A DNA stretch of 64,000 bases from Yuukianura sp. NJ FZ-2021 (lineage: Eukaryota): the NCBI GenBank assembly GCA_046563655.1, contig CM102287.1:9982001-10046000 (forward strand), written 5' to 3'. Position 1 is the stretch's first letter. Each line of letters starts with the position of its first letter. The translations under genes and the position numbers were made by a program. A model generated the notes under the pieces. The model was given only the letters and a program-made list of their open reading frames with translations, made no database searches and was not told the origin of the DNA. Positions 14,743-41,800 of the stretch are shown here, piece by piece.

Positions 14743-16974
14743 GTTTTACAAAATATTCAACGTTTCTGATTACAAAATACAAAAATCAAAAGTAAAATAA
14801 AAACTAAAATAATGAAATTCCTCAAAAAAACGTTTCTTGAGTTCAAAATTGGAAAGTTTTCTAAAAACTAAACTGTACCAGCACTGGAGTTTCTATGACA
14901 ACAGAACACCAAAAGGCAAAGACAAAAATTTTGAACGTTTTTTGGAAAAAAAATCTAGAAACTGAGGGAAAAGTTCAACGCCGTTTGAATTTTGTTTTGC
15001 TTTCTCCATTCCATAACAAATGAATTTTTAGTTTTCGGGAGGAAATGTTCTGCGTTTGCTCGTGTAGGTCAAAGGTCAGGCTTCCCCTCTCCCCTGCAGC
15101 ATCTGCAGTTCGTCTTGTGTTGTCAGAAGTGCATTAGGAGTGAGAAGTTGTTAAGTTTTTGTTTATGATCCTAATTAAGAGTTAAACAACTTAAACAACT
15201 TGTGTTTAACTTAAGTTTTGTTGATGTTAGGCTGTTGGTGGGCAACAATATTTGGGAAAGCGAGAGACGAAAGCCAGAAGCTTCCTTCCAAGTTCAATGT
15301 CAACAGAAACTGTAAACACAAAGTGGATAAGTGGTGCACTTCTCCTTACAAAAATATTCACACCTTTCGCCAAAACCGTATTTCAAAATTTTGAAACTTT
15401 GAAAAAGTCAAAAAAAAAATATCTTTTTTCTCTTTATGAATGCCTGCAACTAGTTCTAGTTACCTTGAAATTTCTGATTTCTATTTTGAGAATTTCGTTG
15501 TTTTTTGAAAACTTTTGATTTCACTTGACCTTTGACCTGTGAGGTCACGCGCAAACGGAGCGTGTCTGATCATAAATTTTGGTAAACTTGTGAGGTGGTC
15601 TGGTGTCTGGTAGTTCTTACATGTACTACTTTAGCATAAAAAGCGAACAACGGTCAAAATGGACTCCCTTACAACTTTTTTTTTCAAAAAGGGGGAGATT
15701 TTTTGTGTGTTCGAAAACTGTTTACTTCAATTTTTCATGCGTGATCATGCACGGGTCATAGTTCAAAACTCATTTCTTGGGTGACCTTTGACCTTTAGAG
15801 AAAAAAGAGAAACTTAATTTAGATTTCTTCCTTTCTTTTTTTGAAATTGTTCATCCCCTTTTCTCATTTTGGAAATGAAATCGAATTTCACCGAAATTGT
15901 ATTTCTGTTTGATGAAAATTCCTCTTTTGTGGTATGTCTCTCCCTAACCTTACTCAACATAAAACATACCCTAGTGTTATATTTCTTGACACTGTCATGT
16001 TACAGGACTCATGTCCACACGTTGGACTCTTCTGGACAACTCTTCATTCTTTTCACTACTAAAGTCACCACTTCTCAGTGAGAAGTGAGAAGTTCTCACT
16101 TTACCAAAAAAAAGAAACGAAAAAAAGTAATTCTAAGCCACTTTCTCTCCAAAACTTTCACTCTTGAAGGTTCGTCGTAGCAGAAAAATTGTGCAAAAGA
16201 GAGACAGAGTGTGGACAGATCGTCCATTTCCGTCCACCCACATCAAGATCCCGTCCATGACAACGGATAAGCCAAAATTGGATGGATGAGTTCCCAAAGT
16301 GGACTGAAATTGGCCCAAAGTTGAAACTTTTCTCTTTTGTTCCTCTAGAAAAAGCTAACAGGTTTTGTCTCTTTTGTTAAAAGAGATTACGAAGTGGTCC
16401 TTAAGTCTCTTTTTTCAAACAAAAGACAAAGTTCTCCAGGATTTAGGATGAGACGGGCCCTTCAAGGGCTATTTTGGAGGTGGGAGACTTAAGGACCTCT
16501 CGCACTTTCTGTTCTAATGAAAAAAATGAGTGATCTTGGAAAAAAGAGAGAAGAGTTGTGCTGGGCCAATAAATTACTTGACTTTCTCTGTCTCCTCTGC
16601 ATTCTAATTTTCCTAAGAGCCACTTTCTTTATTTCTTCCTCCTTTTCTCAAATTCCACTTTCGAATTCATACTTTCCCGCAGCACTCCTTTTACTGCACG
16701 GGAGCAACGTGATACTTTCAAAAACTTTTTTCTGCTCTTTTTTTTTCAATATTGATCTCCGGAGAGAAAAAAGTTGTGTCAAAAGAACAAAAAAGTTGAG
16801 AAGAAAAGAAAATTAATGGAACTCAAATCTAGGAGAAAGTGGGAGTGGAAAGGAAGAATTGAATTGAACTTTTGTAATTGCTAAGATGTGACCCCGTGAC
16901 CTTTGCGTGCGTAGAAGTGTGATCTTTGTATCTTAACTTTTACAATGGTGTGACCTTTTATAATGGTATATTTC

Positions 16975-17400
16975 TGGACTTTTGTAATTTTGTAGTAGTG
17001 CGACCATTTTCGAGTTTTGTAGTTTTGTAGCAGTGTGACCATTTTTGCTGAGTTTTGTAGTTTTGCGACCATCTTTGCTGAGTTTTGTAGTGGTGCGACC
17101 ATTTTCGAGTTTTGTAGTTTTGCAGTGGTGTGACCATTTTTCTGGAGCTTTGTAGTTTTCCGACCTTTTTTTTTTTTTGCTGAGTTTTGTAGTTTTCGAC
17201 CATTTTGCTGAGTTTTGTAGTTTTGCGACCATTTTTCTGGAGTTTTGTAGTTTTGCGACCATTTTTCCTGAGTTTTGTAGTTTTTTTTTGCGACCATTTT
17301 TGCTGGGTTTTGTAGTTTTGCGACCATTTTTGCTGAGTTTTGTAGTTTTGCGACCATTTTTGCTGAGTTTTGTAGTGGTTTGACCATTTTCCTGTAGTTT
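16975..17400. repeat. Tandem minisatellite, ~32-33 bp unit, ~12 copies
   Basis: Unit GAGTTTTGTAGTTTTGCGACCATTTTTGCT; gives repetitive ORFs in all three minus frames. Confidence 0.9.
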
Positions 17401-19364
17401 TTAGTTGTTTGACCTTTGTGAATGTGGCCGGGGTCAAAGGTGACTGTTCAATTAGACTTAGCGTATGGAGCATAATATGTCACCGTGTCTTGGGAGACAG
17501 GCTCCACTTGAAGTTTTCCATTCAATCAGGCCGCTGTCACTTCGGTAGTTGAAGAAGAAGTGATGAATAGCTGAGCTTTCCTAAGCTCTGAGCACCCAAG
17601 GAGGCACGTGCACATCCACTTCTTCTCAAGATCCAAACAATTCGGATATCCAACGTCTACTTAGCACTTCACACCTCCTCAACACTGTTTTCACGCTCTT
17701 TCTTACTCTTTTCACGGCAGTTCTTAGTGTTTTCACGGGGTTTGATAGTGTTTTCTTATCCAACCGCTTAGACGCTCCCGGCTCCGATTCTCTTCTGCTC
17801 AAACTTCAAGAGAAAGTTTACTGCTTTACAAAAGTTTTACACTCAAATGACTCAAATAAAGCAACAGCACATTAAAATCCAACTGAACACTGAAAAAAAC
17901 CCTGCAAAAACACCGAAAACATTGAAAAAACACTGAACATTAGAAAAACACTGAAAACACAAAAAACTTGAAAAACCAATGGAACCACTGCTGAATAAAA
18001 CACTGAAAAACACCGTGTTTTTAAAACTCAGCTGTGCACTGATCTAGAAGTTGCACCGTTGGTGAATATGTTAGTTGTGCATAGTTTTTGTGCACCGTTG
18101 CAAAACTTGTGAACTTGTGAACTTTTTTGATGCACAGCATCTCCCAAAGCACCAAGTTGTGGATCAATGTTGCACAAAAACTGGGTTAAGTTTTTGAGTG
18201 ATTCAATTTTGTGCATAAGATTCACAACATGCACGGTCACACTATGTGAAACTTATTAGAAAAACTGTGCACAGAATTTTTTTTTTATGAAAATCTGTCA
18301 ATAAATTTTGGAATTACTTTGAGTTCATTACTTTGCACGGAATTGACTTTGTGAATTTGCCATAAAATTGTTGACTCTCTCTGCACAAAATTTCAAAAGA
18401 TTTCCCTTCAACTTTCTTTTCTTGAAAGCGGAGAAAGTAAGTCTATAGTGTGTGCCCTAGGAATTAATCACTCTCTCTCTCTGAAATTGAGTAATAAAAA
18501 TGACTAACATGTTTCTCCAGCTCACTTCTGATTGGAACCTAACCTAAAAAGTAGGTTTTCTAGCCTAACCAGCCTAACTAGGCCCAAAACCTAACACAAA
18601 GTCCATTTCTTAGAACCATAAAACCCGGGAAATGATAAAGTTGAAAGACCCGCCTCCTTTGACATTATGACCATAATAATCGGAAGTTTATGATGTGATA
18701 GCACACCCCTCAAACACAGCCCCATCCACTACCGACCGGAAACTCACAATTATTCAAATTCAACTTTCTCCACTTTCTCAAATTTCAAAAAAATCTTTTC
18801 AAAATTTTTTTCTCTTTGAAAAATGTAGGAGATAAAAAGTTCTTTTGAGTTTTTCTGTTTTTGTGCTGCTGTCAAAATATTTCTCTTCTTTCAAATGAAG
18901 ATGGACAGAGTCCGAGTTATTCTTCCTTTGATCTCTCTCTTTTTATGGCGCTTTCTCTTTTCTCTTTCTTTAAAAAAAAAGAGTTCCCGCGTGAGTGGAC
19001 TGGAAAAGGAATTTGTGCGGACTTTGTTGAAATCAACATGGAGAAAGCCAGCAGGAGACTTTCATCTGCCTCCAAATCCCTTGTTGGTTATTACAACCAC
19101 TGCCGCACCAAAAGTCCATTTCAAATAGAGTGACTGCGCACCCGCAGAGGTGCGGACCAATATTTCGGAAGGAAGAGATGGATTGGAAATCACCTTGGCA
19201 ACGCAGAGGTAACTTCCAGGAAGATCCAATCCAGGAATTGGATTTATCCATTTCTCTCCCTCTGTTTCTCCAGAAATGATCAAAATCCTGTAGATCTGTT
19301 TCGGTTTTCGATCAAAACGGCTTCTGTCCCAACGGATCATCTTTTCTCTTGAATTGGGTCACAA

Positions 19365-24244: not shown

Positions 24245-25992
24245 GCCCAGAGGGCGCTGCTGTCCATCCTTCTGAATTTCTAATTTCTCCGTTTTTTGAA
24301 ATTTAAATTCCCTCTTTCAAGAGCGCCTTCTTTACTTGTCAGTTTCGAACAAATAAATTAAAGTTTCTTTTTCTGTGAAGTTGAGTTGGAACCTAATCTG
24401 AAGTTTGGATGCTGTTTTGTGAGGATTTTAATTATTCAGAACAGACTCAAGATGGATGACAGAAGGAAAAAGAAAGTGCGATGAACAAAATGAATTAATA
24501 ACTCCACTTTCTCCTTCACTTTCATCGTCGAATTATTAATTACTCCAAACACTCAAAGTTTCGATAACAAAAAATGGACAAAAAGAGATGTTTAAAAAAC
24601 AAGTAATTGACCCGTTGAAAATTCTGAAATTTTTTATACTTATAAAATGAAAAAGAGTAGGTTTGTTTTTTGGAGAGCAAGTGAAGTGGTATTATCTGAA
24701 CGATTTTTTTTTGTAAACAAGGACCTTGTTTTTAATTACTTTCTCTTGGAATGATTTACTTTCTCCAATTTCTGGAAGTTGAATTTTAATTGGACATTTT
24801 GCGTCTCCTAATTTCCTCCAAGGAATTTTCCATTTTTTAGACTTTCCTCACAAAAACAATAATTTCAACCACTTCCTTCCTCTTTCTATTCTTCCTTAAT
24901 TAAAAATTTCATAAAAACGAAACGACTTTTTCAAAAAATTCAACTTCAAAATAATAAGCAAACAGTGCTAAAAGCATAACTTCAGCGCCACTACAGAAAT
25001 TATCCTGGCAAGGTTATAGTGGTAAAGGAATTATTACAGGTTAGTGCATTTGGCTTGTGGAAGAACTTGGTTTATGGAATTTGCAGACTGAATATCAAAC
25101 GTCAACGCAGAAATTAAAAATTTGTTTCAAAATTTGAAGTTTTGAACCATAAAATTTTACAAAAAGAAGTTATAGTTAGCAGGCAGGAGTGACAGTGAAA
25201 GCACAACTTTCACTCCACGTAGCGGAAATGCCAAAGAAAGTTCGCGTTTCTTCTCTTTTTTGAAATTTTTGTTGTTTGAACAGAGAGATGTCGGTGGTAT
25301 GTGTTTGGGCTTGGCGATGAATCAAGTAACGATTCCTGGAGGAATTGAGGTCTCCTGGAAAGCCTGGAGGAAGCGCTTCCAGGAAAAAGTTCTCCAGCGT
25401 CAAGGAGTCTCCAGCGCTTCCAGGAAAAACTTCTTCCGCGTCAAGGAATCTCCAGCGCCAGAAATTGGCAATTAATTGGCCATTAATTGCCAATTGCTTT
25501 GCTTCTTCCTGTAAGTTTAACAGTGTCGGCTAAACCGCAAACTTAATTCCATTTAGTTAACGTCACGCCTTATAAACATGAAGCTGAACTTGAAATTTCT
25601 AACGTAACGTCAACGGCCTTTTGAAAAAGAGTAAGCCACTTTTCAAAATTTGGGTTAGTTAGATTTTCAGAATTCCCCAGAATTTTTAATTTTTGTTGTG
25701 AGAATTTGGAGACTTTTTTGTGGAAAATCCACTTGTTCTAATTTTCTCTCAATTCATTTTTACGACAAAAGTCGTTGCAGGTTGAAAGAAAAAATTGCGA
25801 GGTGTCACGCAATTTCCGTTGGAGTGGCCAAGACAGTACGAAAGTACAGGAAAGGTACAACGGAAACCACAATTCACAAGATGATAGCACAGTTTTAGCA
25901 CAAAAGTTGGTATAAATTAACAAAATTTGGAAATTTTGAAATTCCATTCCAGTTTTCATCTCTGTAGAGTGTGCAGTGACAAGGAAGAAAAA

Positions 25993-26523
25993 ATGAAGTC
26001 AGTTTTACTTTTACTCGTTACTGTTGCAGTTTTCTCAGGTTTGACCTCTCACCTCTCCAAAATTTTTAAATGTTCGACTTCCCAACTTTAAATTTTTCGG
26101 AAATACTTAAATTTTCAAATTTTAAATTCCTTTGCAGCTTGTTTTGCCCTACCACCGAATTCCTGGCGGACGTACCGTGACACTGATGATGATGATGACG
26201 ATGGAGGAGATTTGTGGCGGGACAAGTTCGGTTTGACCGGCACTGGCGGCAGGTATCGGAAGTCGGACGATGACCCGAACAACTGGAGAGGTCAAAGGTC
26301 ACTGCCGTTCTTCCGGTACTGGGACAAGAAGGACAAGAAGCAACCAGATCAGGATGGAAAGATCAATGCATGTAAGTTGTACAACTCTTAGAAATCTACT
26401 CTGACATATGTTAAACATTAACCTCCGTTGACCTTGACCTTTGCAGGGGGCGAAGACGACACGGGGGTCATCAACTGTCCTCCGGACGTTCCCAAATGCA
26501 TTCCAAGGCTCGGAAGACGCTAA
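25993..26523 (+). CDS. 118-aa secreted prepropeptide, candidate PRXamide (ETH-like) peptide precursor; exons 25993-26038, 26138-26371, 26447-26523
   Basis: Translation MKSVLLLLVTVAVFSACFALPPNSWRTYRDTDDDDDDGGDLWRDKFGLTGTGGRYRKSDDDPNNWRGQRSLPFFRYWDKKDKKQPDQDGKINAWGEDDTGVINCPPDVPKCIPRLGRR*. Two phase-1 GT-AG introns; AATAAA at 26587. Confidence 0.8.
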
Positions 26524-26615
26524 AAGAAATTCATCTTTTACTAATTTTTTTTTGTTTAATTTCAATTCCATCAATAATTTTATTTAAATAAACCATACTC
26601 ATTCTGCTTGTCACA

Positions 26616-29600
26616 TCAAGTTCGCTCTTGCAAAAAATCCTAAACTAAATTAATTTTAGTTTAGTCTCAACTAAAGTTAAGATGAAAACTATGTTAATGG
26701 TAGGGAACCATAGAAGCCCTGTCAGAGGGCAAAGGTCGTTGACCTTCCTTCCGTCTCCCCCGTCTGGGGCCCATTTCATACGCAACAGTCGGCTGTTGTG
26801 GCTGTGGTGCTGAGCCACTCTAAAAATTTAACAATCAAAATTACGACATAAATTCCAACTTTGAAAAGTTTGATTCACAAACCGTCCTTCGACGCTGCAG
26901 CGTTTTGATTGGTCGCTGCAGCGTTTCAGAAAATTTGAGATGTTGCGGCAAGTTGGGGTTGTTTGAAGGCGTATGAACAGCACAGCATTGGACAAACAGA
27001 CCAACGAACAGCAGAAAAGCTAAGAGAATCAATCCAGTCCACCAAGGATTTCCCTGAAATGGCATAACACCAATTTCCAAAGTTCAAAATTTTCAAAAAT
27101 TCAAGTTTTTCAAAATTGGAAATGTTCAGATTTTTACCTTGATCCAATCAATTGCATTGTGATAAGTTCCACGGTTGAACAGAATTTTGGTCAGTCTGAG
27201 CAGTGGTCCTTGCTGGTCGACTGGCCGACATCGGTGAAAAACGTCACAGAAACCCTAGAATGCTTCAAAAATGTTAAAACTGACACAAATTTTTAGTGTT
27301 TCACGGTTTTTTGGCGGTTTTACCCGAAAATTGTCACATGGTGTTCCAGGCGGCAGTTTCAGCGTTTTGTTCAAACTGGTAACGTTTGAAATTGGAACGC
27401 ACTTGGATTCAGTGTTCAAACAGGCTAGTTCACACAAAGTACTTTTGTTCGGATGCTGTTCATGCTGCAAGTAACACTCGTCGTAACCGTACTTCATGCA
27501 CAGAGATCCACGACACTCTCCGTCGATACAAACCTGCACATGCGTAGAATGAGAAAGATTGTCGCAAGAATCCTTCTGCGACAAAGTTTTTGTCGCAGTT
27601 TTCAACTTACTTGTGTTCCGTTGTTGCACAAAGTTGCATTGTTCGGTTTCGGACGGGGAGTGGGACAGTGTGGACTCGTTCCGGAACAGAACATCGGTTC
27701 GGTACATTCCGTTTCGATTTGACACGGTTTCAACTGATGCTGCGACCTTGGAGAAAAAGTGCAGTCGGTTTCACAGCATGGGCCTTCACTCGGAGAACAT
27801 TCGGAACCAGGCGTTCTTTTGCACATGAGTGGATTGACATGTGACCTGATCAGGTCAGAGGTCAAGTCTGTTTCATTGTCATACACATGCAACTTGCGTG
27901 GAGTGCAACATTTATCGGTGCATTCTGCTCTGTTGTATCCACAGTCACACTCTTCGCCTTCTTCGACAATTTGATTACCGCAGAACGTGGATTCAGTAGC
28001 TGAAAATAAAAATTTCAATTTTCATGAGTTTGTATTTTGAAGAATTTATGAAATCTAGAATTTAATTTCAAAATTTTGAAAATACGTTCGAAGCAATTCC
28101 GTTTGCTGGTGGGATTGGTGAGTATTCTGTCCAGAACTTTGGCAATGTGCTTGATTGAGCATGTTGAAAATTTGTCATTGTTGCGTAAGTATCCATTGGT
28201 TGATGAAGAGTACATCAAAAAATTTCCATGTTTCCCGCCAGGTTGACAGTCTTCTTCGTCAGGGTCATGCTGGAGGTCAAAACCAAAATTTCAAAGGTCA
28301 AAATACAAAGATTTTGCCGGAAAATGGAAATTTTTGGCCAAGAAATTACCGGCGAGCCAAAATTGTGACCCAATCTAACAAAGAAAGTCAAAAAGTTAAT
28401 CAATTTTTATGAATTTGAATAACATTTTTTGAAATTGGAAATTTTGAAAACTTTTTACTCATGTGCAAAGGTCAAATGCGAAATTCTTGGAGGAAGACGA
28501 CGATTGTAGTTCAGAAAAGTAACAATTCCGGTGTTCAGAGATCTCTTGGACGGAAAATCCGAAAAACTTGAAAACTTTTCACAAATTCCACCAGCAGCTC
28601 CTGTTTTTACAACTTTTTTTTAAAAAAATCTTTCAAAATTTTGGTTTTTCTTGAAAATGTACCTGTATTATCAGGTGATGCCACCCAAGCCAATCCAACG
28701 ACACCTCCAGAAAAATCTCGGTACGTAAAAGTATACGACAAGCAAAAATCGTCGTGGTTAAATCGTGAGTGCAAATCCAAAAAATTACTCACGTCTAAAT
28801 TTTCTACACAATAGGGATTTGGTGGGCCAGTCCAGTCGGGACTACATTTTTCATCTGTGTCAATCTGTGCAAAAAAAAAATTCGCAAATTCGCAAATTTT
28901 GCAACAAAAAGAACATATCACTCAGACAAACCTTTTCACTCACCTTTACTCTGCGAACAACAAATTGAATATTTTTGTGTGACGTTTTGTCGCCCTCGAA
29001 AAGTGAATTTGCGAAAATTTCATTCGCAGCTTTGACATGTTGGCCAATTATGGACAAAATTTCTTCAGAAATCAGAGCTGGGTCCATTCCCTCCTAAAAT
29101 TTTGAAAAATATCAAAATTCGCAAAATCTTGGTCTTCGTAAAGTGTGTTTTCAGTTTTTGCAAAAACCTGTTTCGCAATGTATCTCCAGAGCATCGGATC
29201 CGTTCGAATATGCAGTCGACAAGTTGTTCTGAGCGTAGCTTTTTCATCCTGCACAGACGCAGGACTTTGACGTCTCGTTCTGTGCAAAAATTCGCGAGCG
29301 AGGGAATAAGTTGAGTGAGATCCATGTTCAGGTTCTTTAGAAGAGTGATGAATTTGTGCAAATTGATCCGAATGTGCAAATTCTGGCTCAGTTCCATTCT
29401 GTTGAATTTGCGAATTTTGAATTCTGTGCATCCAATTGTGAATGTCTTGGGAGATACCGCAAGGGGCAGTTTCGGTGCCATTTTTTCGCGAAATAGCGCC
29501 AAGGTCAATGTCACTTTCTTTGTAAATCACAGCATGAGCTGAGGTGTTTTCAAGGTCAAATTTTCGCGAATTTTCGATATAAAAAGTTTCGTTGGGCGTG

Positions 29601-30073
29601 ACAATCCGGCCGTCAAAAATTCCATTTCGAACGGATCCATAGACATTACTTCCAGGAACATCTACACACAAATGCAATTCAAAATTTCGAAATTTCGAAA
29701 AATTTCATTTTGATTTTGAAAACGACCTCTGACCTTCCAGGATTCCCTCGAAAAGATGAACATTTTGTACGAAAGGGAGAGTATCGTTGTCAGCAAAATC
29801 CAATTCAAAATGTTCGCCAAAAACGGTCAAGTCTCTTTTCAGTTTAACATTAAACACATGACCATGCGCTTCAAAACTGAATCGTATCGTGTGTTCGTTT
29901 TGGTCAGACCAAGGTTGAATCGATCGCTTGACCCGTCCATGATCGTCCTGGATCCTGTCCCGGTCAAAGGTCAAATGCTCAAAGTGACTTACAAAGTCAT
30001 TTAGTCTCAAAGATGAAACACTCTCACCCAATATCAAAATTGACACAAAATAGTAAACATTTCTGACGTTCAT
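26616..30073 (-). CDS. ADAM10/kuzbanian-like metalloprotease, divergent paralogue B; exons 30073-29734, 29661-29168, 29093-28944, 28864-28663, 28600-28459, 28374-28350, 28269-28086, 27999-27611, 27533-27324, 27254-27138, 27053-26883, 26819-~26745, last exon uncertain
   Basis: Signal peptide, prodomain with cysteine switch (APCG), furin site RTRR, zinc motif HELGHNFGSPHD, Met-turn FLMYSSS, disintegrin [15 protein letters not shown], Cys-rich domain, TM followed by [11 protein letters not shown]. Confidence 0.9.
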
Positions 30074-30851
30074 TTTGCCAAAATTTTAACAAAATTTTCA
30101 GCACTTTTCACAATTTCTTCAAAAACAAAGCAGTCACCCACATTTCAAATTTTTTAAAAGTTTAGTCAGGAAACTCCACCAAAATATACAGGAAATTCAA
30201 CTCAAAGCGGAACTTACGTTACTATTTCCACTCAACAAAATTTTATCACTCAAACCGCAAACAAACTTTTGCGATTTGCAATTTTTGTAAGCTCTTTCGA
30301 CAAAGTTCGGCAGAAATTTTGTGATTAGATGGACGAACCACTTGAAATAAAAAACTTTTAAAAAAAGTTGATGATAATTGTACCTCTGTGACTAATTCAG
30401 CAGAAGCAGAATCACAAGAGCAATGTGCAAATCTTTGCAAATGGAATTTGCACATGCTTCTTCTTCTTCTGCAAAGTAAGTGCTAAATCCGTCTTTGTGT
30501 CGAAGGCCGTCGACTTTGCGTGTCCTGTGTTTATAACAATCATAAACATTTCTTAGTACTTCTAATTTTTTGTACAAGTTTACGTCTTTACCAAACAACT
30601 TACTAAGCTAGTTACTGCAAAGTAAAGAAAAAGCTATGTCTTTACACTAGTAAACGAAAGCTTGGTTGAAAAGCAGGAAAAACTAATACTAAACTTACGC
30701 AATTAAAGAAATCAATGTAAAATTCGAAATTACTTCACCCCGTATGAAAAATCCAAAGTTTCTGTAATGACAAGAACGTATGAAATACTAGAGATGCATT
30801 ATTTTTAATTTTTTGTGGCGTCGATGTGGCGAGTTTTTTCTCAGCCTGTCT

Positions 30852-31060: not shown

Positions 31061-32856
31061 TAGCTTGTCATGAATTAGGAAAATGCATCTTAACAGAGTT
31101 TTAGTCTAACTTTAGGTAAAACAATGGGAAGCCTAGACATTGTTTCGAAATTCGGTAAAAATTTTAGGGTCATTTTAAACTTTTGCAAAATTCCTGAGAT
31201 CATTCTGAATTTAATGGCGAAGAGATCTCCTTTTTATTGCATTCCGTTCCAGAGATATGAATTTTTAAAGTTTCAAAATTTTGGAGAGAGATTTTGTATT
31301 TGTTTGTGAAGGAAGCTGCTGGGAAAGTGTCCGAGTTGACAGGAGATTATGCGAGTCAAAAAGGTTCCTTTCCCTCCTCGTACTTTCTGCCGCCACCACT
31401 CAAACTCCAATACAAAAAGCATTACAGAAGGAACCTCCCTATCTGCCTCTTTTCTCCGTATAATATCCGGTCAACTTTTCTGCTCTCTCGAAGGCTTCCC
31501 ATGTAAAACACTCTTTCCAAAACACACCAATTCTTCCTCCTTGTTCTAAATTTTTAAAATTTCAACGTTGCAGCGATTCTTATGCTTCCATCGCTCGGAT
31601 CAAATTTTAGAACAACAGGTAGCAAAGCTTGGTGCAAAAATTTTGCGAACAGCCGAACATCTAACGGTTTACTTAACATCACGCTCGCTCCAGCATCTTC
31701 TCTTCGTTTTTCAAAGTGAAAACTTCCTATTCAAAAAAGTTTAGAACAAGTTTGAAAGTTCGTTACGCCTTGGTTTTATTTCATTATGTTCAGAGTATGT
31801 TTATGTTTGTTTTCGCGTCTTAACTTTGTTTTAAGTAGAAGTATTTTTAGACAATTGTTTTCCCTTAGAAGTGAAAACTAAAACTTAATTCAGACATAGG
31901 AAAAACTAACTTAAAAAACTAATTAACTAAAAAAGTTAACATTTAAATTAATTTCAGGAAATACAATAATTGATTACTTAATTTTCACGTGTTTTGAGTA
32001 TACGAACATAAACTTAAGAGTTTTTGGCACATGAGGCTTTTGGTTAAATGACAAAAGTTAACACTTTACGAAAGAGCCCAACTGCCTAACATATACCTCA
32101 CGCCAGGTCAAGGTCAGTGACCTTTGACCTCTGGTCAATCTCCACATTCAAACAATTACTAAATTTAACTATAACAATAAGTAATCATAATTAATAATTA
32201 ATTTAGAAATATAGGAACGCTTGACTTAAACAAACACAAAAACGTATTTTTTCATTCACTCACAAGACTTAAGATTGAGATTTTTTTTGGATTGCTGATA
32301 GTCTTTAAACAAGAAGAGAAAATTCGACTAGAAAGTACACAAAAAAAAAACGAAACAAAAAATTGACAAAAACAAACAAAAAAAAGCAAATTTTTTAAAA
32401 AGTGACACTTTGAGCACAGATTTTGAAAAAAAAAATCTAAAAGTTCCAAGTTTTTGTTCCCAGCCACTTTTTCCCTTACCAAAAAAAAATCCACCAAAAA
32501 CTTAAAATTTTTCAGTTTTTCATGTTCAAAAAACCATTTCAGCCGCCACCTTTCCCTAATCTTAAAAATACAATTTTTTCAAACTTTTTCTAAAAACTTT
32601 CACATTTCGCTGCCTCCAAACACCCGCTGATGAAACCATGATGGCTGCATTGTTACAAAAGTTAAGTCTGGAATGATTCGTCGAAACTTTTTACCGGATG
32701 AAACCGTAGTCGCATGAGAGTTTGTCGCAACTTTGCGACTTTTTCCGAGTGAGTTCCGAGTAGATCTGAAAGTTTAGTTGTCTTCAAGCTGTCGTTGAGG
32801 GCGAAAGCTTCCAATAAATTAACAAATTAAGTTTACAATAAAAATTAATATCAGGG

Positions 32857-35806
32857 TCAAACACGATGTTGGGCTTGAGAAGAGGATTTCTTGGGAACAC
32901 CGTTGTATGCTGCACGAGAGTTGTTACTTTGTGGACCGCGGGCAGCTGAAGGTCCACCGTTTCTGGCACGGTTTGGTCCACGGTTTTCGCCAAAACCGTG
33001 GGGCCGTGGAACTTGGTGGGTCGGTGGGACATTTCCTGGCGGTGGGGGAGCGCTTGTGTACGGTGGAGGTGGAACTCCATGGGCAGCGGAAGCAGCTGAA
33101 CCGTTGGATGTACTTGCAGTGGTTGTGGCACGATAATTGGCATTTCGCTGAACAAAAACAAAACAAAATTAGTACTATTTTCAAAAACAATCGCATCAAA
33201 ATTTTCAAAATTTTTGTAATTTAAACTTACGTGTCTCCTGAGCGTATTGATGGGTCGACGAAGCGTGTCACCAATTCTTCTGGCGGGAGTTTTATTTGGA
33301 TTTGACGACGGCGTGTGGACGGCACAGCACTTGATGAACAGCCCCATCACGATCATAAATCCAACTCCAATCAGTAGCACTGCCCACCAAAAGTCCTGCA
33401 AAATCAAATTCAAAATTTCAATTTCCATTTTCCATTCCAATTTTTCTCTGAAATTTTGAAATCCTTACCGTCACCCACTGAGCAATATTCAGAAGCGTCT
33501 CTTTGTTGAAGAGCAAATTCTTGAGACGTGCTAACGGTCCTTCCGCATCCACAGCGCGACATTTGAGAAAGACATCACAGTAGCCCTGTAAAATCCAAAA
33601 CACATTTAAATTTCAAATTCAAAACATAATTAAAGTTAACTTAGCCTAACACACCTAACGTAAAATAGCCTAACTAAAATAACCTAACGTATTTTAGCCT
33701 AACAAACCTGGAAGTTGTCACACGGTGCTCCAGGACGGAGACTCAATCCACGCGTAAGGCCTGGTAAATTCAGCTCTGCAGTGGACTTGCACCTTCCAGA
33801 CTTGTCCAGACATGCCAAGTCACACAACTTCCGCTTGTCAACACTCTTGTCAGCACTGGACAGAAAACATTCTTGGAGTCCAAACTTGAGACAAATCGAA
33901 CCACGACATTCTCCCCCTTGACACACCTAAGAAAACACAAAAACAAAATCATTCAAAAACTTTTCGAATTCAACTACTTTCGAGTTTTAAAATTCCAAAA
34001 CTTTTTCAAAAACTTCACCTGTGTCCCATCGTTACAAGTCGTAGTAATGTCTCTCCTTGGAGTTGGATTTGGACACTGAGCTGTTTGTCCGTTGCAGGAA
34101 GAGTTGAAACTACACTCCGTATCATGTTTACACAGTTGAAAACTTCTGGAAGAAACGAAACTGCACGTTCGAGAGTCACAACAAGGCCCTTCACTGGGAC
34201 TGCACTGCGCAGTAGGCTTCCTTCTGCATCCCTGCGCAAGTGGATTCCTCACTGCATCAGACTGATTGATTTGTCTTGGATAGCAACACTCCTCCAGGCA
34301 CTCTTCATAGTTGTAGCCACAGTCACACTCTTCTCCCTCCTCCACAATCTTGTTCCCACAGAACGTTCCATTCGTAGCTACAAAAAAGTAATCGATTACT
34401 TCAAATCAAACACCTCGATTACAGATTACATCAGAAACAGACTGCTGATTACATCTCTACATCAGAAATCGACTCCTGATTAGATCAGAAATGAACTACT
34501 GAATACATCAGAAATCGATCACTGATTAAATCTTTACATCATAAATCGATTACTTCGATTACTTTTGATTTCGACTTACATATAAAACAATTGGATTTCT
34601 TCTGATCATACAAAATGGCATCCAGGACTGACGAAATGTTTTTGACAGAACAATCCGAAAACTTGGAATTGTTCGGTCGATCTCCACTCGTAGCTGATGC
34701 AAACATGATGTAATTTCCATCGGATCCTCCTGGACGACATTTGTTTGGATAATCATGCTGTTCAAAACAAAAATCAAAATTTGAAAATCTCAAAAAGTTT
34801 CAAAATCCAAATTCAAAAAACTGACCGGTGACCCAAAGTTGTGTCCAATCTCATGTGCTAGTGTCAACTGGGACACTTTGGGCGGAACACGACTATTGTA
34901 ATTAACAAAAGTAATTATGCCCGTGTTCAAACTTCGACGTGTTGATTGATAAACTCCTCCTATTGTCTCTGTATAAGTTTTGTACGTTTCACAAACTCCA
35001 CCAGACGCTCCTGAAAAACCAGCAGGGTTTCAAACTTCAAAATTCAAACTTTTCAAAAACTTTTTTCAAATTTTGAAAAAGTACCTGAAGCAGAAGCTAC
35101 CCATGCCAAACCGAGCGTTCCACCCGTGAAATCTCTGTAGGTGAAGACGTAAGCGAGGCAGAAGACGTGATGGTCCGTGAGAGAGTGCAAATTGAGGAAA
35201 TTGCTCACGTCAATATTTTCAATACAAAATAAATTCTTCTCCCCTTTGTAGTCACTTCTGCACGCCTTGTCAGTGTCGATCTAAAACATCAAAACATACA
35301 CAACTTTACCTAAACAAAAATTCACTCATCACTTCAACATCTCATCGCTTCAACATTTCATCGCTTTTACCTTGATTCTCTGCACTTCAAAACGTATGTT
35401 TTTGTAGGCCTGCTTTCCATCAAACAGCGTGTTGGAGTAGATATGATTGACGGCCTTCACATGCTGAGCAATGAGTGACAAAATCTCTTCACGAATCTTC
35501 GTCTCATCATTCGTTTTTTCCTGTTTCCACAAAAAAAAATTCAATTACTTCGCTAATTCATTGTAATTAAATCACTAGATCGCTAAATTAGTTGTAATTA
35601 CACTCCATAATTACTTTTTAATAAAACAAATCCTTCAACAATCAACATTGTCCTTCCACATACTCAATTTCATTAAAAATCAAAACTTTTCACTTTCTTT
35701 TCTCTCCAAAAATCCAAATCTTTAAAAATTCTTTCTCTCTCAAAACCTCAATTCTTTAACAAAACTGTGCCAAAATCGTGTCGAATTTTTCAAAAATTCT
35801 TTCAAA

Positions 35807-35838
<32 letters not shown>

Positions 35839-38800
35839 GCACTGTTTCTATTCTCAAATGACCTGATCAGCGATGTGTCTCCAGAGTAGCGGATCTGTTT
35901 GGATGGACAGCGTACAAGTAGTTCTTGAGTTGAGTGACGACGGGAGAGCTCTTCTGTCGCGATTAAAAAAGTTGTTAGTGCTGGGATAGTTACTCCCTCT
36001 GGGCAGAGATCCATTTTGAAGTATTTGATGAAATGCATTGGGTTCTCTCGTGTACTTAAAATAGGCTTGTTCCTCTAAGTTCGCTTGCAGCGCTTCCGCT
36101 GTTGGGCCATCACGTTGAAATGGCTTTGACTTTGGGTGACTCAACTGCGGAGACACTTCGTCATCCTCAGCAGAGTTCTGGATTGAGTCCATCCACGCTG
36201 CAACTTCATCCGTAATTCCACACCCTTTGGCATGACCTGCTCAAAATCAACATTCAAAATTAGCCTTCAAAATCCAAAATTTGGAAAATATTTTGAAAAT
36301 TTGACCTGTTCTGAGATGCTCATATGGATCCTGAACATGATTTCCAGAGTATATCACAGAATGAAGGCTAGAGTTCCTATCTCCTAAATGCTTAGCATAT
36401 TTGTGAGCTCTCTCCACATAAAACGTTTCTCCAGGCGTAATTATTTGACCATCAAAAACACCCTTCTGAATCGATCCAAAAACATGACTGTCTGGAACAC
36501 CTAAAAACATAAAATAAAAAAAACTTTCAAAACTTCCCATTTTTCAATTAAACTTTTGAAAAATTTGCTAACACAAAAGTTTCTCTTCCGGATCCGAAAA
36601 ATTGCGGGTCTAATTCCAAAGTTTCAAGAAAAAATTGCCAAAACAATTGCCCTCTCCGCAATTTCAAAATTTCTTGTTCAGTAATTTCTCCCGAAAAAAA
36701 GCCGCGGAAAAACTAAAATTACAGATTTTCTTAAGATTTCTTTCAAAATGTTGTTGTATGGCAGAAAGAAACAAAATTTGAAAACAGAAAAGGCGCTTAA
36801 CTTTCTCTTTTTGAAATTCAGCTCTTAAGTCATTTCCCAAATGACTTGTTCATAATAATCATAAATTCTGCATTACGTCTTTGCGTGTGTAGACATAGAG
36901 GGGCTTTTACTTTTTATTTTATGTGCACCAGCTAAAAACCAATTTTTTTAACTATAAAAAAACTCGGAATTTTAGAAAATGGAGAAAGTTACTTATGGTA
37001 TGGATTAAAATTTCTGCCAAAAACGAGAACGCCCCAATTCCTTCGCTTATATTTCAGAAAAACGCATAGCCTTTTCCTTTCTTCTAACAAAAAAGTGAAA
37101 AACAGAGTCATCAAAAAGAAACTAAGGCACGCAGTCACTCCAGAAAACACTTTCTCTTCTTGAACTCAAAATTTTCAAACCCAAACTACAAAGTGGGTCA
37201 ACAAAATTCACTTTCTCGGATACCACTCTCTCGTTGACGCACTTTCACCAAAACGACACAAAAAAACTACAAAAATAAAAATAGTGACACCTCAGAGTTG
37301 AAATGTCATCGCCACTTCACCTTCAACTGTGCAAATTCCAACAAAGTTCCGAAAAACTTTGAAAAAAAATTCAAACTCTACTCAAACGTCTCGACTCTTG
37401 ACTCACAAGCGTACGCGCCGTATAACATATAATATAATCGAGTACGCTACAAAAACTAAACAACGTTTCAGTTGCGTCTCTGGATAGGTCGTTTGAATTT
37501 TCAAAACCAAAATTATTGATTTCATCAAACCAGATGCACATTTGGAATTCAAAAAATCTTTAAACAAAATACATAGCCCTGATCCCGAACTTCCTTCGTT
37601 CTGTCGTCTGGAATTGCAAATCCGCAAATCCCGCGAAAATGATCCAGAAAACTTTTTTGTTTGTAGCGGAAAAACATGTCGACATGTTTTAAAATTTGGC
37701 AAACATTTTGATCCAACTTCTTTTTTTTTTGAAACTGTCATACCGTGAACATGTCCAGTGACAAGGTGTGACAAATCCACTTCGTCCTCTCCCCGTCCAT
37801 CTCCGTCCATTTGAACATTAGGACTGAACACACTCGTCTCTCTCTTGAGTCTCAGATGGAAGTTGTGTCTGGCCGTCCTTAGCTTGATGTCCACCGACGG
37901 CTCATGCTCCACCTCACCCGTCCACCGCTTGACCCGCCGGTGGCTCTGCTCCACCTTGGCTGTATCGTAGTCAAGGTGCTCAAAGTCTTGGATGTACCCA
38001 TTCAGCCGGGTTGCTGCAATTCACACACAAAAAAAACACAAATTTTAAATTTCTACAAGATAAAAACATAGATGTAAAATTTCCACAAGAAAAACACAAT
38101 CAAGAAAAGGAGCACACAGATTTAAAATGTCCACAACAAAAACACACAAACTTAAAATTTCTACCAGAAAACACCATAAAATTTCTATAAAAAAACATAG
38201 AAGTCCAAATTGTGAAAAAAAAAACTGTAGTAATTCCCAAAATTTTGAAAAAAAAAAATGCAGTTACTCCCTTCCGCTCCAAATTTTTTCCCACACTTGA
38301 AAATTCCCACACCTTAAACCGCAGATAGTTAACCGACGGAGGTCCTCATTTACCACAATCTTCAAAATCCGCTTTCAAAAAACCAAAACCTTAATTTTTT
38401 TTTAAATTTCGAAAAAGTCAGGCCACTCTGAAGAAAGTTAAGCAATTAAGCGCTCTTTGGCAATTGAGAAAGCCATGAAAGTCTAAACAGGGCACAAAAC
38501 ACCCATTGTTTTCTGCTGTATCTTTCTCCTCGCTAACTTTCTATGTAAAATTAAATCTGATTTTACACATCGTTAGTGCAGCTCTACTTCTAAGACTTTG
38601 GAAAACATGTTCCAGCGTCTCCAGGATTACCCTGTCTCCAGCCTCACAAAATGTTAATTCCAACCCGACGAGGAATTGAACCAGCGACGCTGGAAAAAGA
38701 GAAACCTCGTTAACCATTTCCACCAACATCTACATCTCTTTCATGCTCCTCCTCATGCAAATGTAAAACATTGGAATGTGCTCCAACCTTATCCCAATTG

Positions 38801-41800
38801 GATCAATACTTCCACTTTCACCCACCACTAAAATCCTAAATAGCCCTCCACCAGCGTCTCAAGTCACAAACAAAAGTTAGGCTAACATTAATCTAACCAA
38901 CTAAAGTAAAAGCACAGGCAAAAAGAAAAGAAAGTTGGTCTGATGAAAGTAAGAGGTAAATAACACTGAAAGACGCTGAAAATACGCTGAAGAACGGTGG
39001 AAATGAGAAAGACGCTGAAAAAACGCTGAATGAGTTTAGAAAGAGAAAGCAGCTGGGAAATGCAATTAAGCCAAACCAGGCAGAAAGTGAATGGAAACTT
39101 TAATCAACTTTTCTCCCTCCATCAAACCACTTCCTTTCAATTCATGCTTTCACGCACTTTCCACAAAAAAAAATTAAACAAAAACCAAAAACTAAAAAAA
39201 ACACACCTTTTTTTTCAAAATTTAACATTTTTAACAAAAACTTAACAACAGTTTCTTTTTTTAAACAAAAACTCTTTCACAAAAACGGAAAACTTTGTCC
39301 TTTCACTTCCACTTTCTCTCCTTCATTTTCCGCATATTTTTTTTGCAAAAGTGTTTATCGTTGCCAAAATTAATTTTTTCATGTAAAAACTAAAGTTTCT
39401 TCCTTCTCGGAGCGTTAAGACATCACAAATTCTTCATTAATTTCATCCTCTACTTCACTCTCTTCTTCCTCACAGCAAAAACTCCACTTTTCCTTTACTA
39501 TTTTCATTTTCACCAAAAATTCCTCCCGGACTGTTATTTCTAACGCAAGATCTTTCCAATTTCCGCAACTATTCGCATCACAGCACCACAAATAACACAC
39601 TTTCATTCTCCTCTGCTTTTCTTCTCAGAATCTTCCCTCATTCCTCGTGTCACTCCTTAAAACAAATTGCCTCTGCTTGGGGAATAAAAAAATTAGAGCA
39701 CAACTTTTGGCACTAAATCAAACACAAAAAAAGGAACGTGCTGAGTTTTTTTTTCTTCTTAAAAAGTTCTCACTTGCTAAAAACCAAATTTAGGACTTAG
39801 CAAATCAGTCACACGAAATTTTCTCATCGTCCACCACATCAAAAGACTTTAAAAGAAAAAAAAATCACGTTACAAAAAATTGCAATTTTAAATTCGCCAC
39901 TTTAAGTCCCACTGCTTATCAATTCTCAGTTTCTCTTTCATTCCTTTTCTTCCCAGAACAAAAATTGTCCCAATTTGCAAAAATTTCGCAATTTGCAATT
40001 CAGTTCATATCGTGGCCAGTCACCACAGTTTCGAGAACACAGTGACACACAATTGACTAAAAGCAAAAAAAAAATGACAAAAAAATGCACAATGTAAAAC
40101 ACAAACTGACAAGATTAGAATCTGGAACGAATTTGCAACTCCCAAAATTTGCCAATCATCCACGCTTAAAATTTTCAATTTTTCCAAACACCACAAAAAA
40201 ATCAGTCAACCTTGGTCTCTGTTTCTTTCACATTTTTTTCATTTTTGTAATAAAGTGATCATGGTCAAAATATTTCAGTAAAAACATCAAAATTAAAATT
40301 TTGAAAAAATGGAAAAAACAGAAATATTTTTGTGCGAAGAGAACAGAAAAGTGCTTTTGTAGTGGGAGGTCATAAAAGTTAAAGCGTTCAAGCATAGCCA
40401 TGTGTGCCAAAACTTTTAAACTTCCTGGTTCAAGCATCACACGGAAAAAAGCAGCACTTTTCGTTTTCTGAAATGCTGAAAAATCACAGACATTTTTTCT
40501 TTTTTGTAACAATTTCCGCCAAAACTGAAAAACTGAAAATTACTGTCATTTCCTCCTTGATTTCAATTCCAAAAAAATGAAATCATACTCAGCACATCGA
40601 ATCGTGATCAATCTCAAAAGATCTCTGCAACTTTTAATTCCAAATTTAGAAATTAAAATTTAAAATCAAAACCAAAAACGAAAAATTTCATCAATAATTT
40701 AAAATCAATTCTGTTTTCCAATCCCTGAATTTCTGTTTCCTACAAAAAACATAATTTGCTCTAAAAGACAACTGCTAATTTAAAAACCAAAATTCAGCTT
40801 CAAAAAACATAAAAATTCCAAACAGAAGTCAAAACCTTCACAACAAAAAATCAAAATCAAATGCGCAAAAAACTTTCCGCTTCAAAACATTTCCTCTCCT
40901 TCACCAGTAGCGTTTCATGCCATAAATCTCAGCTTAAAAAAAATTAAGATCCAAAAACCTCAACACTGTCGACTGCACGGCAACAGATTTTTTGCACAAT
41001 TGAGAACCTCATCCCCCGCCCCCATTTATCTACCCCCCCCCATCTCACAGAGATCATGTGACCCCCCCCCCCCACCAGAGATCATGCCCCCCCCACCAGA
41101 TTTTACAGATTACGTGTCCCCACCCCCTCTGTTTCACATATTGCGTAATTTCAGAACAGAAAAAAGAACAATAGAGTTAACTCCCAGTTTCACCTCGACA
41201 CAATACACGCGAAACCCAACTTATTTTAATTGTTGGCTGCGCAGAAGTCGTTTTTTGGCATTTGTGCTCATGTGTACTTGGAGTTGGGAATTGTTGGAAC
41301 TTAACCGTTAGAGAGTAGGGTGTATCCTTGTCACCAACCACCCAACAGGCACAAGTTCAACAATGGGACTCCACTTCCGCTTAAACTTTCCTCCATCAAC
41401 TCATTTTTAGCACGCAAAAGTCACATCTCACCAAAAACTCCCGCAAAAAACCATCAAACCACTTTCAAAAATTAAAATCCACCAACACGACGACGCCTCT
41501 CTACCAACTACGAGACTATGACTAAAAACTCCTTGACCCATATTAAAAAAAAAACAGGATTTTGAAACAAGTTTTTCAAAAAGAAAAATTGAAATCCGGA
41601 ATTTCAGAGTCCCGTTGAACCACCCCAAAAACTAAAATTCCAAGTTGCAACATTCACCAAGCATCAAAAACCGAAAAAATGCATTTGATACAAAATCTCA
41701 AATTTTACAAAAACAAAATTTCAAAAAATAAATAATAACATAAAAATATAAAAGAAAAACAACGTTACTGTCCTTACTCCAATTTTGAACTGCAAGGTTT

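Follow-up and report, generated by a model that had tools for sequence, protein, structure and literature searches.

A predicted three-exon gene of a probable springtail with a candidate ring-and-tail peptide of the PRXamide kind at the end of its secreted precursor

A gene of three exons was predicted on the forward strand of the window (the whole 64,000-nt stretch of DNA that was analysed). It starts from the ATG at 25993 and encodes a product of 118 amino acids with the C-terminus INCPPDVPKCIPRLGRR-stop. A hidden gene of this structure had been proposed in the initial annotation; the GT-AG model was reproduced, and the intron positions and phases recur in an orthologue on a second contig, L017, which upholds the proposal as a prediction. 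The features of the locus are listed below.

25799..25823, forward strand: conserved upstream block 1, matching L017 at 23 of 25 nt, with an exact 10-mer at 25814-25823
25846-25856, forward strand: shared word of 11 nt, exact and collinear in L017
25861-25874, forward strand: shared word of 14 nt, exact and collinear in L017, containing GGAA plus a RUNX-type word
25878-25886, forward strand: shared word of 9 nt, exact and collinear in L017, a GATA-type word
25911..25916, forward strand: TATA box, aligned with a TATA-like word in L017
25993..26038, forward strand: exon 1, coding part, with the start codon and most of the predicted signal peptide; its hydrophobic counterpart in L017 has 49 nt
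26039..26137, forward strand: intron 1, 99 nt, GT-AG, phase 1, place and phase matched in L017
26138..26371, forward strand: exon 2, with the end of the predicted signal peptide, an acidic pro-region, three repeated Trp-Arg motifs and basic sites
26287..26304, forward strand: predicted convertase site, R-x-x-R then Ser-Leu; L017 has Lys-Arg then Ser-Leu
26332..26340, forward strand: Asp-Lys-Lys, a possible second cleavage site, 32 residues ahead of the Leu predicted to be amidated in both species
26372..26446, forward strand: intron 2, 75 nt, GT-AG, phase 1, inside a Trp codon; codon and phase matched in L017
26447..26523, forward strand: exon 3, with the loop, the amidation signal and the stop
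26476-26478, forward strand: Cys104 in exon 3
26497-26499, forward strand: Cys111 in exon 3
26503-26511, forward strand: Pro-Arg-Leu in exon 3
26512-26520, forward strand: Gly-Arg-Arg in exon 3, followed by the stop
26587..26592, forward strand: polyadenylation signal AATAAA; L017 carries AATAAA 63 nt past its stop
26889..27059, reverse strand: 3' exon of the neighbouring ADAM10-like gene, which is convergent with the peptide gene; a synteny marker, 45 of 57 amino acids identical in L017

Both introns have TTTGCAG acceptors. The ending could be reached by 34 two-intron GT-AG combinations, and a simple splice-consensus filter left 4 of them; the 118-residue model was preferred among these paths because its intron positions and phases recur in the L017 orthologue. 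The host genome (G000; 98.7 Mb in 22 contigs) was searched for further copies. The peptide gene was single copy, with 1 match by DNA and 1 by each of the two exons as protein, and searches with the exons at E values up to 10 returned nothing beyond the gene itself. The pattern K-x-h-P-R-h-G-basic-basic gave 13 matches in the genome and 10 in a reversed control. By itself, the terminal motif is thus no more frequent in the genome than chance allows, and it is the orthologue that raises the observation above chance.

Metagenome contigs were scanned once with a pattern describing loop and tail together, and the only match was L017, a genomic contig of 1721 nt that holds a three-exon orthologue of 126 amino acids. 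Both introns were at matching places and in matching phases, the second one again inside a Trp codon. In exon 3, the window and L017 agreed at 18, 18 and 7 of 23 sites for codon positions 1, 2 and 3, respectively. Among the last 18 residues 15 were identical, 10 of these 15 with a synonymous change. The search pattern had preset 10 of the 15 identical end residues, whereas the third positions, the introns, exon 2, the promoter and the neighbouring gene were not preset. Both Cys, Lys at -6, Ile at -4, Pro-Arg-Leu and Gly-Arg were invariant. Exon 2 was 35% identical, with all three Trp-Arg motifs retained and with the basic site before Ser-Leu and the Asp-Lys-Lys common to both sequences. Two details given in the initial annotation were thereby narrowed: the run of six Asp in the window corresponds to no more than an acidic patch in L017, and the GRR-stop ending holds for the window, while L017 ends in G-R-stop. 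In the exon of the ADAM10-like neighbour, fourfold-degenerate sites agreed at 4 of 13. The two sequences appear to come from distantly related species with saturated synonymous sites, and the pattern of substitutions points to strong purifying selection on the peptide end, the most constrained part being the last 18 codons. This conservation rests on one comparison because only two sequences are known, and the range of the gene so far is two species. The introns, the promoter and the neighbouring gene are shared with L017, and the substitutions follow a protein-coding pattern; therefore, the gene is almost certainly a real coding gene, read in this frame, with the looped and putatively amidated end as its most constrained part.

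The region upstream of the start codon was also compared with L017. Four collinear exact words of 10, 11, 14 and 9 nt were common to both sequences. The longest shared word had 14 nt, the longest in 300 shuffles being 13, and the summed length of shared words (88) was above the shuffle mean of 43 and below the shuffle maximum of 102. The alignment of 25795-25920, a stretch picked once the alignment had been seen, scored 93, compared with 27.6 +/- 7.4 and a maximum of 44 in 200 shuffles. Conservation beyond that of shuffles was not found farther upstream, in intron 1 or in the 3' UTR. The words of block 1 were taken to be ETS-like and XRE/Pax-like, the factor names being putative, and the conserved promoter words fit the ETS, RUNX and GATA consensus in both species; they also fit T-box, AhR/XRE, Pax and Rel/NFAT sites. 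Genome searches with the promoter words gave 6 matches against 3 in the control, 5 against 0 and 36 against 30, with no clear enrichment. Inspection of every site of the first set, the 4 others of the second and 30 of the third revealed no further gene with the complete arrangement; none of these 4 lay in a like promoter, and no co-regulated immune gene emerged from the searches. A second RUNX-type word was observed 400-460 nt upstream of the ATG, at about 25533 in the window and about 400 nt upstream in L017. A pair of direct repeats, 41 nt each and 90% identical, together with an inverted repeat of 17 nt next to them on the downstream side, occupy 25372-25498, about 500-600 nt upstream of the gene, and no counterpart of them was noticed in L017.

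The peptide gene sits between a gene at 22.6-24.1 kb, which we take to be lipase-like from its motif, and the ADAM10-like gene on the opposite strand, another exon of which matched the Disintegrin family of Pfam. Two tandem ADAM10/Kuzbanian-like genes lie on the reverse strand at 26694-30085 and 32784-38020, and the nearer one is syntenic in L017. From this synteny, we infer that L017 is a springtail contig. Elsewhere in the window, the GC skew was strongly negative (-0.19 to -0.38) over about 8 kb at 36000-44000, and tandem repeats at 16881-17479 yielded long overlapping low-complexity open frames on the reverse strand. The host was evaluated via a NOG1 tree of the window and 29 hand-chosen sequences out of 120 listed hits, with the window row joined from overlapping tblastn pieces. 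The window fell in a clade with two Orchesella proteins (support 100/100), apart from insects, crustaceans and a mite, in a comparison set that held no proturan or dipluran. Among the matches listed for the NOG1 exon, the best named relatives were Orchesella proteins (71%), behind proteins at 81-84%, and the top score belonged to a 993-residue record with an identity of only 63%. The host is probably a springtail (Collembola).

The sole hydrophobic stretch of the precursor was its N-terminus, where the Kyte-Doolittle 9-mer score peaked at 3.21 at residue 4; after residue 25, no 9-mer exceeded 1.5. Exactly two Cys lie downstream of the predicted signal peptide. A secreted precursor with a Cys-x6-Cys loop and an amidation signal after Pro-Arg-Leu had been claimed earlier, and this claim gained support from the conservation of both loop and signal in L017. 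The cleavage sites were predicted from convertase rules, under which Lys-Lys is a weak site. The two predicted products, of 32 and 46 residues, have side-chain charges of -3 and 0 in the window and likewise -3 and 0 in L017; a charge of +1 was obtained solely for an arbitrary 16-mer without a cleavage site. For the window peptides in amidated and oxidised form, the calculated monoisotopic [M+H]+ is 3487.67 for residues 84-115 (3470.65 if pyroglutamate is formed) and 5326.66 for residues 70-115, to which reduction would add 2 Da. The N-terminal cleavage site of the mature peptide is uncertain. An amidated, disulfide-bonded product is highly probable. An AlphaFold model of 33 residues from two sequences was uninformative (pLDDT 67, pTM 0.24). 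Within exon 2 (26138-26371), two of the three conserved Trp-Arg motifs are preceded by Asn-x, and the motifs may be excisable as separate non-amidated peptides.

Homologues were sought with several tools, all of which (Pfam, homologue, Atlas and PDB searches) are weak for short peptides. Neither exon 2 alone nor the two-species alignment of exon 2 found a homologue among proteins of about 43-154 residues, and when the 33-residue open frame was compared with cluster representatives by HMMER, the 2 hits obtained were unrelated repeat proteins. The ESM Atlas held no usable match for either exon, each exon of either species matched 0 Pfam families, the PDB gave one match by sequence at E 3.3 and none with a profile, and viral contigs gave 0 matches. 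The family search by HMM and sequence raised as a check at the outset thus matched no known family, a weak outcome for peptides this short.

Three of the 13 genome matches to K-x-h-P-R-h-G-basic-basic were plausible precursors, namely the peptide gene itself and two ETH-type genes at C4:2607257 (L010) and C4:14517707 (L012), on a contig other than that of the peptide gene. Both ETH-type products begin with a hydrophobic stretch, which is short in L012, and contain an aromatic pair plus Lys-Gly; Gly-Arg-Arg and then an associated peptide follow the last eight residues, which are identical in the two and end in Pro-Arg-Ile. Their intron is in phase 0 and lies 9 codons before the Pro, compared with phase 1 and 18.7 codons before the Pro in the peptide gene. 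As judged from sequence, L010 and L012 fit ETH as it is defined in PMC9853942 and the single-copy springtail ETH of PMC4770511. Table 1 of the latter study gives a single peptide copy for springtail ETH, and its xls table holds no ETH2 entry for any of the three springtails there, the study spanning nine springtails. The initial annotation had named a separate canonical ETH gene as a point to check, and two separate genes of the ETH type were found.

The pyrokinin pattern gave 16 matches in the genome and 12 in the control, and 2 of the 16 fell in a full capa/pk gene at C8:2741222-2744857 of the host genome (L036, L037), which encodes three periviscerokinins, one tryptopyrokinin and many pyrokinins. 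Short and nearly identical pyrokinin units follow one another in a long tandem array in this gene. L015 had been considered as a CAPA gene and was dropped, being without precursor context. The ETH, CAPA and pyrokinin types are accounted for elsewhere in the genome; therefore, the peptide gene is additional to them.

The peptide of the window was compared with each PRXamide type. Pro-Arg-X, Gly and a basic site in a predicted secreted precursor were found and are conserved in both species, and Leu falls within the range of X (I, L, V or M) stated in PMC13234976. The C-terminal pattern of ETH was also present, with Lys at -6, an aliphatic residue at -4 and PRX-amide, as judged against five ETHs and against L010 and L012. 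In supplement 3 of PMC13234976, Lys at -6 occurs in 4 of the 5 ETHs and an aliphatic residue at -4 in all 5, and the decapod ETH there shares Pro at -7 and the acidic character of -9 with the window peptide. Set against these peptides, the view that the C-terminus is of the ETH type and not of the pyrokinin or CAPA type was borne out. Like springtail ETH as reported in PMC4770511, the window peptide occurs as a single copy in its precursor.

The aromatic pair, the precursor layout and the intron of ETH were absent. Cys-Pro stands at the positions of the Phe-Phe pair, and the nearest Phe-Phe lies 38 residues upstream in the window and 50 in L017. In contrast to ETH, which comes directly after the signal peptide and before an associated peptide, the peptide contains two Cys and ends its precursor, and no intron is common to the peptide gene and L010 or L012. 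An ecdysone response element upstream is a feature of ETH genes. No IR1 or DR4 match with at most 2 mismatches was found in the 600 nt upstream of the peptide gene, but the two ETH-type genes had none upstream either. The earlier suggestion that the peptide is the ETH of this animal was not supported, since two ETH-type genes of the usual layout lie elsewhere and share an intron that is absent here.

The Pro-Arg-Leu-Gly-Arg ending is shared with pyrokinins. However, pyrokinin/PBAN peptides are defined by Phe-x-Pro-Arg-Leu-amide (PMC9853942, PMC10755894), whereas Cys was found at -5 in both species. The definitions of CAPA-periviscerokinins and tryptopyrokinins, Phe-Pro-Arg-Val/Ile-amide and Trp-Phe-Gly-Pro-Arg-Leu-amide (PMC9853942), were not matched either. 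Compared with the capa/pk peptides, the window peptide has Cys for Phe at -5, Ile for Phe at -4 and no Trp-Phe-Gly, and one copy is present instead of many. By its motif, the peptide gene is of the PRXamide kind, and it is not a member of the ETH, CAPA or pyrokinin types.

A disulfide ring with a short amidated Pro-containing tail is also the design of vasopressin, oxytocin and inotocin, the tail containing Arg in vasopressin. These peptides have Cys-x4-Cys-Pro-x-Gly-amide next to the signal peptide and a neurophysin, whereas the window precursor has Cys-x6-Cys at its C-terminus with a four-residue tail predicted to end in Leu-amide, no further Cys and no Pfam match. Among arthropod peptides, allatostatin C/CC, CNMamide, elevenin, CCAP and the insect ENF/GBP cytokines have one disulfide each, as the window peptide is predicted to have. 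Allatostatin C, CNMamide and ENF peptides likewise end their precursors, and allatostatin C shares the x6 spacing. However, no known motif of these families occurs in the window peptide. Elevenin and CNMamide are given as missing from springtails in PMC4770511, and the tail and spacing seen here fit neither.

Candidate receptors were searched for in the same genome. A TM3 pattern, covering genes with that TM3 wording uninterrupted by an intron, gave 12 GPCR matches and 0 in the control. Two of the 12 carry a His in TM3 and have Trp replaced by Leu in TM6, the comparison of TM6 being confined to these two. Both changes are published marks of ETH receptors (PMC13234976). The two genes are as follows.

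C6:4785500-4794000 (L052): ETH-receptor gene with the TM3 and TM6 marks
C7:3918000-3927900 (L053): ETH-receptor gene with the TM3 and TM6 marks

Over matched exons, they were 49-66% identical. A preprint cautions that ETH-receptor isoforms can inflate paralogue counts; nevertheless, these two genes lie on different contigs. For one further TM3 match, the nearest solved relative was neuromedin-U receptor 2, and two more were similar by eye. Genes resembling NMU receptors were located at C3:6.93 Mb and C7:8.29 Mb. We take the GPCR at C8:3012085 (L051, L054) to have the look of the NMU/ghrelin clade, without the His of ETH receptors in TM3, and the one at C3:11358043 (L042) presumably resembles a TRH/EFLamide receptor.

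The explanation that best accommodates these results, with a chance that falls only a little short of even, is a fourth PRXamide-type gene of springtails, the product of which would be an amidated ring-and-tail ligand for a receptor of the PRXamide clade, perhaps one ETH-receptor paralogue. After removal of the signal peptide, a convertase would cut at the basic site before Ser-Leu (residue 70), perhaps with a second cut after Asp-Lys-Lys (residue 84). A carboxypeptidase would trim the terminal Arg or Args, and amidating enzymes would convert Leu-Gly to Leu-amide (Leu115). Cys104 and Cys111, the only two Cys of the mature chain, would form a disulfide. The product would be a peptide of 32 or 46 residues with an 8-residue ring containing three prolines and a free Ile-Pro-Arg-Leu-amide tail, and its shape would be that of a vasopressin-like ring and tail and not of a cyclised PRX motif. 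The cyclic PRXamide of the initial annotation is modified accordingly in form: the Cys-x6-Cys is conserved, but the PRL-amide lies outside the predicted ring.

Within the animal, the proposed peptide would act as a signal on a GPCR that belongs to the PRXamide/neuromedin-U clade. The tail may enter the receptor pocket like that of any other PRXamide. Selectivity may come from the ring, in place of the N-terminal address that Phe-Phe provides in ETH and Phe at -5 provides in pyrokinins. Action on a receptor of the PRXamide clade is somewhat favoured over the opposite, and action on an ETH-receptor paralogue in particular is credible but on the unlikely side. Such a paralogue is the best candidate because Lys at -6 and the aliphatic residue at -4 are ETH-like, and because the two ETHs with the same ending could share one receptor. 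On the other side, two ETH genes for two ETH receptors would pair more simply, with neither receptor left over for the peptide. Moreover, the replacement of Phe5 by Tyr lowered the potency of ETH in crab ETH-receptor activation more than fivefold (PMC13234976), and the Phe-Phe that was important for that receptor appears here as Cys-Pro, which argues against such action.

The most serious competing explanation, although a rather unlikely one, is that the gene and its processing are as proposed but the product is a non-neuronal signal or effector with a target outside the PRXamide clade, its likeness to a PRL-amide being chance or incidental. In one form, the product would be a cytokine-like peptide of blood cells or fat body, cut by furin; the cleavage site with the strongest conservation is, in the window, of the R-x-x-R (furin) type. 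The promoter words match ETS, RUNX and GATA sites in both species, and neither ETH-type gene has a RUNX or GATA word in its 600 nt upstream. In Drosophila blood cells, GATA factors work jointly with RUNX factors (PMC6366919). The peptide gene's exon 2 also has conserved Trp-Arg repeats of its own. Known PRXamide precursors are not known to contain such repeats. Against this, the promoter words fit other factors as well, and the genome searches revealed neither enrichment nor a co-regulated immune gene. Furthermore, the site of expression and the class of receptor are separate questions, and hence a blood-cell source would be compatible with a PRXamide receptor.

Descent from ETH is a different kind of claim, and it overlaps the preferred ring-and-tail reading. 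The gene would be a rearranged duplicate of eth, in which the peptide has moved to the end of the precursor, two Cys have been gained and a role in moulting has been kept. The last nine residues are ETH-like, both the eth gene and its receptor are duplicated in the genome, and Ser-Leu-x-Phe-Phe after the cleavage site in both species has a faint likeness to the Phe-Phe start of ETH. However, that Phe-Phe is 38 and 50 residues away from Pro-Arg-Leu, no intron is shared, the layout of the precursor is reversed, the contig is different, and the exons retrieved the gene alone even at E values up to 10. Such a paralogue is quite unlikely.

An exocrine product (spermatophore, glandular or defensive) mimicking the PRXamide hormones of another individual or species is very unlikely. 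The product would be secreted and restricted to a lineage, homologues having been found in two species only, and a disulfide loop plus an amide is a common stabilising design of secreted effectors. Peptides of venoms and semen tend to multiply by duplication and to evolve quickly, whereas this gene is single copy, strongly constrained over saturated synonymous divergence, and conserved in promoter and synteny. The earlier idea of a seminal, venom or defensive mimic is weakened because the gene is single copy and the peptide appears to be under strong purifying selection with saturated synonymous sites. The probability is slighter still for an antimicrobial peptide (thanatin-like, with a single disulfide) or a small loop protease inhibitor. 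The two Cys six residues apart, the possible furin-type site and the immune-type promoter words are set against a predicted product that is neutral or acidic and not cationic, a proline-rich non-cationic loop, the lack of a Pfam or PDB match, and a layout unlike that of the five springtail antimicrobial families of PMC10051947, as compared by description and not by sequence. Finally, a chance splice path that is no gene at all has a negligible probability. In its favour, the motif taken alone does not exceed chance, and the identical ending can be reached by several GT-AG paths; against it, the introns, the coding substitution pattern, the promoter, the poly(A) signal and the synteny are all conserved in L017.

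The peptide gene is apparently undescribed. In the literature searched (mainly open literature, with the springtail precursor listings of PMC4770511 outside it), no description of the peptide or of a natural disulfide-bonded PRXamide was found, and none of the 39 known families of PMC4770511 fits the window peptide by the motifs compared. Arthropod PRXamides are attributed to three genes, eth, capa and pk/pban, in PMC9853942. The fullest version of the preferred explanation would make this peptide the first natural disulfide-constrained PRXamide, the product of a fourth hexapod PRXamide gene and the own ligand of one duplicated ETH receptor, maybe released from non-neuronal cells of the blood-cell type; taken as a whole, this combination is unlikely. 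If a fourth PRXamide gene with a ring is confirmed, it would mean that conformational constraint can replace aromatic address residues and choose one receptor, which would bear on receptor selectivity in the PRXamide family and on the design of constrained analogues. Two ETH genes and two ETH-receptor genes are present in one genome, and hence the pairing of ligands and receptors is directly testable. If the peptide is released from cells of the blood-cell type, it would link those cells to the control of moulting.
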